Shown: positions 39,510-53,689, numbered from the stretch's first letter. The stretch is 64,000 nt of DNA from Candidatus Latescibacterota bacterium (GCA_963707635.1 OY970173.1:2408882-2472881); one strand, 5' to 3'. Notes: generated by a model from the letters alone, not told the origin. Program-made: numbers and translations.

Positions 39510-40547
39510 CTAGCGCGAGCCCTCTCCTCCGTCTTCCTTGCGCGCCGCAATCGGTGCCGGCGGCGGCGGCGGGTTGTTGTTCAGGTAGTCGATCGCCGAC
39601 AGCAGGAGCCCGCTCATGTACTGGCGGTTGTGCACGCCGATACTCCGGTCCTCCTCGACCAGCAGGAAGTTCCAGATCGCCCCGGCCTCGTCCGAGGTTC
39701 TGGTTCCGGCCGTGGGCAAGCCGGTCGAGGCATTGAGGAAGCCCCGCCCGACGAGGAGGGTGCGCAGCGAATCCACGAGTTCGGCGGTCTCGGTCTGCAC
39801 CCCATCGATGTCAAAGTTGGTCGTGGTGCCGTGGCAAGGCACACAGGCAGCGGTGTTGAGGATCTCGCCCTCCTCGTCCACCCAGCGCATGTTCCAGGTG
39901 TGACCGCCCACCTTGCTGTTCCGCGTGTATTTCATGTGACAGTCCCAGCACCCGTTCTCGGTGGCAGAACGGTGCTCGGTTTGCTGGTACGAGTAGCCCG
40001 CATACTCGTATCCGTTCGAGCCCATGATCATGTCGCCCTGCACGCTGTGGTGGGGACCCCAGCGATTGTTGGCGATGGTGACGGTTCCGCCCTCCACGTA
40101 CGTTTCGACATTCTCGCGTGCGTGGTGGCACGAGGCGCACAGGTTTCCGAAGCCGAGGTCGAACTTGAACCCGTTCTGCAACGCCTGCGTCTCTGTCACG
40201 CGGAGTCTGAAGTCGCCGTTGGTGTGCGGCGCGTGGCAGGTGAAGCAGTGGATTGCGGTGGGGTTATCGACGTTGGCCGGCATCGTCCCGGTTTCGATCC
40301 GCGACACAAACCCCTCGCTGGTATGACACCCGTTGCACGGCGTCGTGCTGCGGTTGGTGTTGAGACTGCTCCCGTGAACGGAATGCTCCCATTGCAAGGT
40401 ATTTGCAATGATCTCCGTGTCCTGGTCCGAGTGACAGTTGAAACACGTTTGTGGAGTGGTGTCCTCGGCCACGGTCGTCACGCTACGGTCACACGCGTAG
40501 AGCGACGCCGCGGCTGCGACACACACCCAGATTCGAAGTTGTTTCAT
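39510..40547 (-). CDS. hexahaem c-type cytochrome lipoprotein (putative outer-surface component of a porin-cytochrome conduit)
   Basis: ATG 40547 preceded by a GGAGGG RBS. MKQLRIWVCVAAAASLYAC carries a lipobox. Six CXXCH motifs: CFNCH, CNGCH, CFTCH, CASCH, CWDCH, CVPCH. Pro-rich C-terminal tail NNNPPPPPAP. Confidence 0.8.
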   Translation of the reverse strand: MKQLRIWVCVAAAASLYACDRSVTTVAEDTTPQTCFNCHSDQDTEIIANTLQWEHSVHGSSLNTNRSTTPCNGCHTSEGFVSRIETGTMPANVDNPTAIHCFTCHAPHTNGDFRLRVTETQALQNGFKFDLGFGNLCASCHHARENVETYVEGGTVTIANNRWGPHHSVQGDMIMGSNGYEYAGYSYQQTEHRSATENGCWDCHMKYTRNSKVGGHTWNMRWVDEEGEILNTAACVPCHGTTTNFDIDGVQTETAELVDSLRTLLVGRGFLNASTGLPTAGTRTSDEAGAIWNFLLVEEDRSIGVHNRQYMSGLLLSAIDYLNNNPPPPPAPIAARKEDGGEGSR

Positions 40548-40588
40548 CGTGGTTTCCCTCCTGCAGCGCCGGCTCATCGCCGGCTGTC

Positions 40589-52163: not shown

Positions 52164-53689
52164 AGCAATTGGTGTCCCGCCAGTCGTCCCCGCCGTCCGG
52201 GTGGTCGAATTCGAGACCGTCTTCGGACATTGCCATCTGCATGCGCTCCCCGCTTCCCTGGCGCAGGATGATGTGGCACGACGGTGCAGTCCCGCTTGAT
52301 GACCCAGCCCTCCGCACTCTTCTTCTTGCCGTCGTGACAACGCATGCATCCCGGGAAGATGAAGTGGCCGATGTTGTCGGGGTAGCCTTCCCACCGCACC
52401 TTCATCTCGGGGAAAATATTCAAGGAGAACTGCTTCTGGGTGGCCAGTACCGCGTCGTCGATGTCGACCCGACGCTTCTCGAAGACTTCCGGATACTTCT
52501 CCCGGTAGGCGTCCGGGATCTTCGTCGCGATGGCACGGTGGGCCTCCTCTTCCGTCGCGTATTCCGCCTGCATCGCTTCGACGGCGATGCGCTTGATCTC
52601 CGGAAGCGTGACGTCGATCTGACCGGTGAGGAGCGCCTGGTCGATGGCATAGTCAGGCGAGCGGAACCGGTGGCTCGGCCGGTTGTGGCAGTCCATGCAG
52701 TCCATCCGGCGCGGGGTGGCGGCGGCGAGCTCCTCCTCGGTGAGCGGCTTGTCCTCGTCCTGGTAGACCGTCACGCGTCCGGTCACGCGATCGGTGATCC
52801 GGACCCACGGGATTTCCTGCCGCCGCGGGTCGCGCGCGATGTACTCGACCTTGGTGCCGATGTTCATGTGCCAGTGGATTCCCGCCGTCTGCCCGGTCTT
52901 GGGATCGCCTCCCCCGGTCTTGATCAGCAGGTTGATCGGCCAGTGGGTGGTCGAATCGTCGTACATGTAGTGGTTGTACTGACGCTGCTGCGCGCCGAAG
53001 AACTTCTCCGGCCAGTGGCACTGCTCGCAGGTCTCCTGCGCCGGCCTGAGGTTCTTGATGGGCGTCGGGATGGGGCGCGGGTACTTGTTGAATGCGGCGG
53101 CGTACACCTGGTACGCGCCCGACAGCTTCGACTTCGCGTACCAGCCGGCGCCGGCCCCGACGTGGCACGCCGCGCACGACACCCGCGCGTGGGGCGAACC
53201 GCTGTAGGCGGTGTGCTCCGGCTTCATGACGGTGTGGCAGGTCGTGCCGCAGAACTCGACCGATTCGGTGAAATGATACGCCTGGTACCCGCCCACCACG
53301 GTGATGAGCGACAAGAGGCCGGTGCCGAAGATCGCGACGAAGAAGGCGTTGCGATGCGTGCTGCGGTTCAGATCGAGCTGCGGCCACTGGGGCGGGAGTT
53401 CGTCGACCTGCAGGCGGATCCGGCGCCGCTTGCGCAGCATCCCGATCGGAATGAGCAGCACCCCAACGGCGAGGCAGACCGGAAGCACGAGGTAGACGAA
53501 GATACCGAGATACGGGTTGGATTCCCCGACCGTGGCGATGAGGACCAGGAAGAACAGCAGCGTGACGCCCAGCACGAGCGTAACCGCCGCCCCCGCGATG
53601 CTGAGCGAATTGTAGGCGAGCCTGGGGAGATGGATGCGTTTCCAGAACATGGCGACGGAGGCCGGTTGCGCGGCGTCGACGTGTTCCAC
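52135..53689 (-). pseudogene. ImcH-like inner-membrane heptahaem cytochrome (3 TM plus NapC/NirT-like region), frame broken by one extra base near 52279 (true frameshift or sequence error)
   Basis: Three N-terminal TM helices, then CGTTCH, CAACH, CEQCH, CMDCH, CMRCH. At ...IKRDCTV the frame slips: gac tgc acc gtc G tgc cac. The -1-offset ORF 52135..52317 continues CHIILRQGSGERMQMAMSEDGLEFDHPDGGDDWRDTNCYECHSGTQP, restoring haem motifs 6 (CTVCH) and 7 (CYECH). The uncorrected tail is Arg/Pro/Gly-rich off-frame-like. Confidence 0.65.

Follow-up and report, generated by a model that had tools for sequence, protein, structure and literature searches.

A candidate inner-membrane-to-cell-surface electron conduit in a multihaem cytochrome island from the Krumholzibacteria-Eisenbacteria lineage

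We analysed a stretch of 64,000 nucleotides from Candidatus Latescibacterota bacterium (GCA_963707635.1, OY970173.1:2408882-2472881), referred to below as the window, in which ten adjoining genes at 39510-53650 form a multihaem cytochrome island. The genes are named A to J here: seven code for multihaem cytochromes and the other three for a Rieske protein, a cytochrome b and an outer-membrane protein of 530 aa. We suggest that the island probably serves outward extracellular electron transfer (EET), from the inner membrane to the cell surface. In the putative mechanism, four inner-membrane modules (J, G, I and F-E-D) would draw electrons from (mena)quinol, and their periplasmic haem domains, probably aided by the soluble cytochrome H, would hand the electrons to the decahaem cytochrome C. 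C would be threaded through the outer-membrane barrel B and would pass the electrons to the lipoprotein A at the cell surface, where A would reduce acceptors that are insoluble or cannot enter the cell, for example Fe(III) or Mn(IV) oxides, humics, electrodes or partner cells. The presence of several quinol oxidases would probably match acceptors of differing redox potential, in the way that ImcH, CbcL and CbcBA work in Geobacter.

All ten genes lie where an earlier reading of the window (the original prediction) had placed them. The features of the island are as follows, with the supporting evidence in brackets.

39510-40547, minus strand: A, hexahaem lipoprotein cytochrome, 345 aa (six CXXCH; open reading frame (ORF) 39510-40592)
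40589-42181, minus strand: B, outer-membrane beta-barrel with a predicted 26-strand MtrB-like fold, 530 aa (AlphaFold2 model, Foldseek)
42185-43138, minus strand: C, MtrA/DmsE-like periplasmic decahaem cytochrome, 317 aa (ten CXXCH, signal peptide, TIGR03508)
43167-43140, minus strand: promoter-like site upstream of C (sequence)
43338-44660, minus strand: D, nonahaem cytochrome c with a C-terminal membrane anchor (nine CXXCH, transmembrane (TM) scan)
44657-45781, minus strand: E, cytochrome b, b6-like with a fused subunit-IV-like C-terminal part (PF00033, PF00032)
45788-46219, minus strand: F, Rieske [2Fe-2S] protein (PF00355)
46363-48519, plus strand: G, fusion of a 13-haem cytochrome c and a HydC/FdnI-type cytochrome b, 718 aa (13 CXXCH, PF01292)
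48645-49235, plus strand: H, tetrahaem c554-like periplasmic cytochrome (four CXXCH, PF13435)
49296-49322, plus strand: terminator-like hairpin between the convergent G-H and J-I units (11-bp stem with nine GC pairs, then a T run)
49353-52163, minus strand: I, fusion of a 19-haem cytochrome c and a cytochrome b, 936 aa (19 CXXCH, alignment to G)
52135-53650, minus strand (ORF 52160-53689): J, ImcH-like inner-membrane heptahaem cytochrome, frameshifted (motifs, TM helices, PF03264)

On the minus strand, from 46219 down to 39510, the order is F, E, D, a 199-bp gap that holds the promoter-like site, and then C, B and A. G and H follow each other on the plus strand, divergent from F, and J and I run on the minus strand, convergent with G-H. 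We place the start of I at the ATG at 52163 and not at the top of its 1013-aa ORF, and the start of H at 48645. In a six-frame search, 66 CXXCH motifs fell within the 14.2-kb island compared with two in the remaining 49.8 kb of the window, a clustering far above chance. The seven cytochromes together carry 68 haem motifs, two of them past the frameshift in J. The original prediction had counted 68 canonical CXXCH; the total holds, and the counts for the intact frames (6, 10, 9, 13, 4 and 19 in A, C, D, G, H and I) are exact, but one motif of J is a CX3CH (CGTTCH), and the 68 are therefore 67 CXXCH and one CX3CH. A conserved CX4CH at the C-terminus of C is a possible 69th haem site.

The periplasmic core of the proposed conduit is C. 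It carries a signal peptide and aligns with the DmsE/MtrA model TIGR03508 over model positions 3-256 of 258 (155.7 bits, E 1.5e-45), as well as with MtrA of the Shewanella baltica Mtr complex (6r2q_A, residues 75-331, E 8.7e-21). In its length (about 300-350 aa is typical), its export, its ten CXXCH and its alignability to MtrA, C agrees with DmsE/MtrA-type decahaem cytochromes, which bears out the assignment made in the original prediction. Judged by these alignments, C is clearly homologous to DmsE/MtrA yet falls outside the boundary of the curated subfamily. Beyond the segment aligned to Shewanella MtrA lies the C-terminal CX4CH, within a QGCxxxGCH motif (window 42185-42220) that is kept in 24 of 26 C homologues, replaced by a CX6CH variant in locus L025 and disrupted in locus L027. 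This motif could bind an eleventh haem at the chain end or outer tip of the cytochrome.

B carries a signal peptide and no haem motifs. It has no match in Pfam or NCBIfam, and a profile built from 47 B homologues found no match among all Protein Data Bank (PDB) sequences even at E <= 10. The model of the MtrB/PioB family, PF11854 (MtrB_PioB, gathering score 23 bits), gave no match to B of the window and sub-threshold signals in two of its relatives (one of 47 members at E 0.02 and one of ten distant members at 16.6 bits). By contrast in fold, the AlphaFold2 model computed on the 47-homologue alignment (pLDDT 88, pTM 0.75) comprises a signal helix followed by 26 beta strands, and its top Foldseek match is MtrB (6r2q_B, E 5e-15, TMq 0.72, 10% identity). 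The next matches, TonB-dependent receptors and LptD, trail by about seven orders of magnitude (E about 1e-7, TM 0.3-0.5). The predicted strand number is that expected of a barrel able to sheathe a decahaem cytochrome, so that the size which the original prediction had required of this protein is present in the model. We conclude that B is MtrB-like by predicted architecture and lies outside the MtrB/PioB family as now defined, and that it appears to represent a new, previously unrecognised sequence family. The family is small and uniform, with 183 clusters at 50% identity among 1.84 billion proteins and apparently full-length members of about 505-557 aa. Its C-terminus (window 40589-40610) is a conserved ...GY.FSTE with no aromatic last residue; outer-membrane proteins usually end in an aromatic residue.

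The third member of the trio, A, is a putative lipoprotein. In all 26 A homologues from related genomes the lipobox cysteine ([AG]-C-[DET]-R) is kept, and 25 of them have six CXXCH; the homologue in L025 has five. The family further holds five invariant non-motif histidines and a sixth that is nearly invariant, and all six haems could be bis-His. The best PDB match of the AlphaFold2 model of A (pLDDT 68, pTM 0.66) is OcwA (6i5b, E 2.7e-4, TMq 0.49, 19% identity), followed by NrfA-family proteins; an OcwA/NrfA-like fold is tentatively suggested by this model. A is not an MtrC: proteins of the MtrC/OmcA type have about 650-700 aa and ten haems, arranged in two pentahaem and two beta-barrel domains, compared with 345 aa and six haems here. 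PF22113 scores A at 30.8 bits against a cut-off of 30, and it also passes D (37.5) and H (31.1), so this model is unspecific. We also considered A as an NrfA-like nitrite reductase. A catalytic role of this kind is unlikely, because A has no CXXCK and its six conserved non-motif histidines could make all of the haems bis-His.

C ends 3 nt before the ORF of B, and the trio is conserved as a unit. A genome scan with B returned 27 loci (L001-L027), all in metagenome-assembled genomes (MAGs). In these loci the order and orientation C-B-A are kept wherever the contig reaches, C and B adjoin each other in 26 of 26 loci whose contig spans both, and A always lies downstream of the barrel gene. We suggest that C, B and A may assemble physically, with A exposed at the surface. 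The original prediction had called for the same gene order to be sought in related MAGs, and the whole island does recur in the same order on one 2-Mb contig (L001/L028), together with the GAF, histidine kinase and receiver genes upstream of it. In addition, L003 holds I through A, L025 holds H through A up to the contig end, and rearranged subsets of the island occur in L006, L009, L013 and L016. In L015 and L027, a J homologue is directly divergent from C-B-A. Inner-membrane genes lie within 10 kb of the trio in nine of the 27 loci (L001, L003, L006, L009, L013, L015, L016, L025 and L027).

Among the inner-membrane modules, J was predicted to be an ImcH-like, 3-TM heptahaem NapC/NirT protein with seven CXXCH. 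This architecture is recovered after repair of a frameshift, with one of the seven motifs being the CX3CH; as assembled, the reading frame of J holds four CXXCH and the CX3CH, and the C-terminus (the last 40-odd residues) is out of frame. The cause is one extra base near 52279-52282: at 52273-52291 on the minus strand, the window reads ACC-G-TCG-TGC-CAC, compared with DCTSCH in an intact protein of 98% identity. The rest of J is intact apart from this single inserted base. With the base removed, two CXXCH are regained, and the product, of 504 aa, matches the intact protein P0056 from another contig over its whole length at 98% identity. The frameshift could be an assembly indel or the mark of a real pseudogene. 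Several of the most closely related genomes are MAGs whose contigs reach megabase scale, which hints at long-read assembly and its tendency to single-base indels.

The repaired J has TM helices at residues 21-39, 49-67 and 102-120 (34-52, 62-80 and 115-133 in the numbering of the 517-aa ORF), a CX3CH located 14 residues past the third helix and six CX2CH. The seven haem motifs are invariant across 25 homologues, and PF03264 (NapC/NirT) scores 40 bits. Zhong and Shi (2018, PMC6295460) define ImcH by a length of 495-519 aa, three TM helices at the N-terminus, a CX3CH of atypical form adjoining the TM domain, and six CX2CH. Compared with this published description, the repaired J shows every architectural feature of ImcH. 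Full-length homologues with the same motif set occur at 47% identity in an Oryzomonas (Geobacteraceae) MAG and at 44-46% in Melioribacter MAGs; the identities between Geobacter-group ImcH and other ImcH homologues are 31.5-49%, and Melioribacter roseus is among the ImcH-bearing organisms (PMC6295460). The end of the repaired J and the start of I, ATG included, share 29 nt (52135-52163), and a similar overlap in L028 suggests translational coupling of the two genes.

G and I each join a multihaem domain to a C-terminal cytochrome b. G matches PF01292 at 47.5 bits (cut-off 30.1), the FdnI gamma model at 57.8 bits and FdnI itself (1kqf_C) with E 4.6e-4. I reaches 27.0 bits against PF01292, just short of the cut-off, and aligns with G at 29% identity over 685 residues (E 6e-82), an alignment that spans the whole b domain and matches the transmembrane histidines. 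G and I are paralogues by this alignment. A simple hydropathy scan gave four to five C-terminal TM helices in each protein, with two of the peaks in G overlapping. The CbcL/MtrH/MtoC family is described as having 3-23 CX2CH, 416-1034 aa and a C-terminal HydC/FdnI-type dihaem cytochrome b of about six TM helices (PMC6295460). Judged by this description, G (13 haems, 718 aa) and I (19 haems, 936 aa) fit the family architecture, in agreement with the two CbcL-like fusions of the original prediction. Of the homology to MtrA, ImcH or CbcL families on which that prediction depended, C shows that to MtrA in its TIGR03508 match; J, with its homologues at 44-47% identity, agrees in architecture with ImcH, and G and I with CbcL. 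H, which follows G, has a signal peptide, four CXXCH and a PF13435 match of 81 bits, and is itself followed by the strong terminator-like hairpin. It co-occurs with F-E-D in Ignavibacteriota and Bacteroidota loci, and we consider it a candidate periplasmic shuttle.

The fourth module is a Rieske/cytochrome b complex. F matches PF00355 at 51.7 bits and b6f-type Rieske models at 58-60 bits, and both cluster-binding motifs, CTHLEC and CACHNG, are present. E, whose gene lies 6 nt from that of F as expected of a Rieske and cytochrome b pair, matches PF00033 at 181 bits and PF00032 at 32 bits; among NCBIfam models it scores 250 bits with cytochrome b6 and 220 bits with ExtP, both under the cut-off, and seven TM helices are predicted. 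The start of D overlaps the stop of E by 4 nt. As the original prediction had claimed, this third gene encodes a membrane-anchored nonahaem cytochrome and not a monohaem subunit of the c1 or f type. Besides its nine CXXCH, D has a signal at the N-terminus and a TM helix at the C-terminal end (residues 416-434). Multihaem replacements of the monohaem third subunit are known in Desulfobacterota and anammox bacteria. The order F-E-D is kept in many loci.

The strongest contextual argument for a link between the inner-membrane modules and the conduit comes from other phyla. A genome scan with the J family found more than 567 loci, and we examined the neighbourhoods of the best 80. Among these 80, homologues of the island genes form G-J pairs in Acidobacteriota and an I-F-E-D-J group in KSB1, G, I, J, F, E, D and H occur together in Ignavibacteriota and Bacteroidota, and other combinations are found in Verrucomicrobia, Omnitrophota and Kiritimatiellales. 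In five Ignavibacteriota/Bacteroidota loci, the inner-membrane set (complete in L071, L093, L095 and L103; G-H-J in L079) is immediately followed by a cluster of the porin-cytochrome (Pcc) type, at about 11.5-20 kb of each locus. These clusters hold a porin candidate of 435-463 aa that is haem-free and aromatic-rich, with a typical outer-membrane protein C-terminus in four of the five loci, together with a 12-14-haem cytochrome and one or two lipoprotein cytochromes. An A homologue is among these lipoproteins and is the last gene in four of the five loci. The Pcc-type layout itself has already been reported for Ignavibacteria. The same inner-membrane genes are thus found beside two kinds of conduit, with an A-type lipoprotein common to both, which argues that the inner and outer parts work together.

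Compared with MtrCAB of Shewanella (6R2Q), the island shares an MtrA-homologous decahaem, a predicted 26-strand barrel that matches MtrB and a multihaem lipoprotein gene, all in one tight unit. It differs in the barrel, which has 530 aa compared with 649 in the solved MtrB chain, shows 10% identity and fails the MtrB_PioB model; in the lipoprotein, which has six haems, 345 aa and an OcwA/NrfA-like predicted fold instead of the decahaem MtrC; in the extra conserved C-terminal CX4CH on the decahaem; and in the gene order, which in Mtr lettering is A-B-lipoprotein and not C-A-B. Clusters of MtoAB or PioAB with MtoC or MtrH (Dechloromonas, Gallionella, Rhodoferax ferrireducens) likewise combine an MtrAB-type conduit with a CbcL/MtrH/MtoC-type fusion proposed to reach the quinone pool. 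In the island, the fusions number two (13 and 19 haems) and are joined by an ImcH-type protein and a Rieske/cytochrome b complex, and the host of the island belongs to the Fibrobacteres-Chlorobi-Bacteroidetes (FCB) group and not to Proteobacteria. Moreover, imcH was reported in 2018 never to be adjacent to mtrAB/mtoAB (Zhong and Shi 2018, PMC6295460), whereas here an imcH-like gene lies in the same island as the conduit, and in L015 and L027 directly beside it.

By published description, J resembles ImcH of Geobacter sulfurreducens (GSU3259) motif for motif, G and I share the architecture of its CbcL (GSU0274), and both types occur in one organism in either case. CbcL has nine haems compared with 13 in G and 19 in I, and the island genes, unlike those of Geobacter, are clustered together and with an outer-membrane conduit. 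Pcc clusters of the OmbB-OmaB-OmcB type (Geobacter, Ignavibacterium, Melioribacter) also join a porin, a periplasmic multihaem and a lipoprotein multihaem cytochrome, with inner-membrane cytochromes, and the Ignavibacteriota/Bacteroidota relatives of the inner-membrane set adjoin Pcc clusters that contain the A-like lipoprotein. The barrel (26 strands, 530 aa) and decahaem of the island are of the Mtr type, in contrast to Pcc porins of about 435-463 aa and their 12-14-haem periplasmic cytochromes. Finally, OcwA of Thermincola potens (6I5B), a nonahaem terminal reductase at the cell surface, is the best structural match of A; the two differ in haem number (six compared with nine), and A is lipid-anchored in a diderm host.

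Several points weigh against outward EET as proposed here. The case is made from sequence and predicted structures, and the relatives are MAGs, none of them cultured. C does not reach the trusted cut-off that NCBI sets for TIGR03508 (192.2 bits). B has no significant sequence similarity to MtrB/PioB, and its link to MtrB therefore rests on the predicted fold. The confidence of the A model is moderate and its OcwA match is weak (pLDDT 68 and TMq 0.49), and the surface exposure of A is uncertain because the residue after the lipid-modified cysteine is Asp, Glu or Thr. The frameshift in J, if real, leaves this module inactive here. Additionally, proteins of the CbcL and MtrAB types are found in Fe(II) oxidisers as well as in Fe(III) reducers, bc complexes share in reverse electron flow in iron oxidisers, and a related Krumholzibacteria MAG that was enriched in an iron-fed reactor with limited oxygen has Cyc2 together with several oxygen reductases; in the iron-fed Bothnian Sea reactor, a Krumholzibacteria MAG made up 9% of reads.

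The last three points bear on direction. Were the conduit to run inward, its electron source would be Fe(II), reduced minerals, a cathode or a partner cell. Periplasmic cytochromes would receive the electrons and deliver them to oxygen or nitrate reductases, and the bc and CbcL-type modules would reduce quinone by reverse flow in the manner of MtoAB/PioAB systems. That a Rieske/cytochrome b complex adjoins the conduit genes on their upstream side would suit such a route, and mtoC of the CbcL/MtoC type clusters with mtoAB (PMC6295460). However, the window contains no Cyc2, cupredoxin or oxidase genes. We favour the outward direction, on indirect evidence, because ImcH has so far been implicated only in quinol oxidation (PMC6295460), and because the conduits known from Fe(II) oxidisers (MtoAB, PioAB) have no extracellular cytochrome, for which A is a conserved candidate here; inward flow is, in our view, credible but rather unlikely. 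The place of A raises a separate doubt. Anchored in the inner membrane or in the inner leaflet of the outer membrane, A would face the periplasm and relay electrons to C, which would leave a two-component conduit of the MtrAB/MtoAB type in which C perhaps contacts its substrate through the CX4CH haem, a site that could sit at the outer tip. Asp at position +2 is an inner-membrane retention signal in Escherichia coli lipoproteins, but sorting rules differ outside Proteobacteria. Moreover, the best fold match of A, as far as its modest model goes, is a cell-surface reductase, and the A-like lipoprotein is last in the Pcc-type clusters of other phyla, the place where Geobacter Pcc clusters have their outer-membrane cytochromes. 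A periplasm-facing A seems to us rather unlikely, though somewhat less so than inward flow.

It is also conceivable that the island has no common pathway, with the ImcH-like, CbcL-like and bc modules serving soluble acceptors (nitrite, selenite, sulfur compounds or arsenate) and C-B-A working independently. The inner-membrane set occurs in many genomes without C-B-A within 10 kb, for example as the G-J pairs of Acidobacteriota, and the nearest NCBIfam models for E and D are ExtP and ExtM, from the Geobacter operon for selenite and tellurite reduction. On the other hand, there is no catalytic reductase gene in or beside the island, and two types of porin-cytochrome cluster beside the same inner-membrane set in different phyla are hard to explain without a functional link. 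We regard this explanation as improbable. The original prediction also left room for a different role already characterised in cultured relatives, for example in the nitrogen cycle; no such role was found, the relatives all being MAGs, and the literature consulted credits Krumholzibacteria with OmcS and Cyc2 hits only.

The host of the island is placed in the Krumholzibacteria-Eisenbacteria part of the FCB group, because most of the loci found in the scan with B are labelled Krumholzibacteriia, Eisenbacteria or Latescibacteria, with a few labelled otherwise. The housekeeping context of the window agrees with this placement, as it includes alaS, recA, dnaX, MglA/B-like genes, a GldG-like ABC system and secreted proteins with tails of the type IX secretion system type. 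The original prediction had pointed away from Proteobacteria, and both the relatives of the trio and the window genes uphold this. The MglA/MglB-like pair, a small Ras/Arf-like GTPase and a Roadblock/LC7 protein, lies at 16574-17690 (minus strand), in the 2-kb stretch with the lowest G+C content of the window (0.61).

Directly downstream of the lipoprotein gene A lies a tRNA-Phe (39263-39338, minus strand). G+C content in 2-kb windows ranges over 0.61-0.71 in the window as a whole; within the island (40001-54000) it is 0.625-0.654, with one 2-kb window at 0.676, and in the flanking regions it is 0.66-0.71. We considered whether the lower G+C content and the tRNA at the edge mark a recent genomic island at tRNA-Phe. 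This was rejected: A and tRNA-Phe are also adjacent in L001, L003 and L025 and lie within about 2 kb of each other in L002, with the tRNA in the opposite orientation in L003, and since the adjacency is kept in relatives of only 53-58% protein identity, it is old and shows no sign of recent insertion.

Three genes lie on the upstream side of J.

53817-54203, minus strand: stand-alone receiver domain (Pfam)
54212-55858, minus strand: PAS histidine kinase (Pfam)
55971-57857, minus strand: GAF-domain protein (Pfam)

The receiver, kinase and GAF genes also precede J-I in L028, as do the kinase and receiver genes in L029, and by their position they are possible redox-responsive regulators of the island. 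Beyond them, at 57925-63249 (minus strand), is a polyphosphate cluster that encodes a Ppx/GppA phosphatase, a histidine phosphatase, a CHAD-domain protein and a polyphosphate kinase. On the other side, just upstream of the island at 33366-39225 (plus strand), are the genes for two large secreted proteins of 1340 aa (GSDH-like propeller, PKD, PA14) and 608 aa (PA14), both of which end in an FlgD_ig-type C-terminal domain and the same ...RRMVLLK tail.

All of the part types in the island, and the clustering of porin-cytochrome genes with inner-membrane cytochrome genes, have already been published. Outside Proteobacteria, conduits of the MtrAB type are on record for Acidobacteria, Gemmatimonadetes and Ignavibacteria and, by annotation, for Zixibacteria; CbcL-type genes beside mtrAB/mtoAB are known (PMC6295460); and new porin-cytochrome types have been proposed earlier from gene context. 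We found no description in the literature of the barrel family B, which current MtrB models miss, of a hexahaem OcwA-like lipoprotein as third partner together with an extra CX4CH on the decahaem, of imcH in one cluster with an MtrAB-type conduit, or of a recurrent ImcH/CbcL/Rieske-cytochrome b/c554 neighbourhood coupled to alternative conduits. A term search of the Melioribacter respiration paper gave no mention of the inner-membrane gene set. For the module in Krumholzibacteria, Eisenbacteria or Latescibacteria, the literature gave only FeGenie-style OmcS, Cyc2 or mtrAB annotations in other phyla. The original prediction of an undescribed arrangement therefore stands for the combination, but the arrangement is not peculiar to this host, and its part types and the idea of their clustering were published before. 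We consider the island a new combination of known part types that is of interest for EET and for uncultured soil and sediment phyla, and no categorical surprise.

Krumholzibacteria, Eisenbacteria and their relatives are common uncultured bacteria of soil and sediment whose respiration is largely unknown. Surveys that use profiles would probably overlook the cluster, since barrel B has no match among Pfam or NCBIfam models; in a Krumholzibacteria MAG studied with FeGenie, OmcS and Cyc2 were the only hits reported, and metal-respiring capacity in these lineages may therefore be under-counted. The occurrence of the inner-membrane set beside two conduit types yields a testable hypothesis as to which quinol oxidases feed EET outside Geobacter and Shewanella. 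Structural studies, and the engineering of minimal electron conduits, could start from three candidates: the compact 26-strand barrel, the additional CX4CH of the decahaem and the small hexahaem lipoprotein. More speculatively, the ImcH-type, CbcL-type, Rieske/cytochrome b (with a multihaem c subunit) and c554-like tetrahaem components might form a multi-phylum supermodule dedicated to EET, with interchangeable conduits: an MtrB-fold barrel with an 11-site MtrA-like cytochrome in Krumholzibacteria/Eisenbacteria and Pcc porins in Ignavibacteriota/Bacteroidota, both ending in OcwA-like hexahaem surface lipoproteins. We hold this wider idea to be possible but on the doubtful side. If it is true, the Q-cycle bc complex would be an energy-conserving quinol:extracellular-acceptor oxidoreductase, and metal respiration would be a widespread and overlooked trait of FCB-group lineages in soil and sediment.

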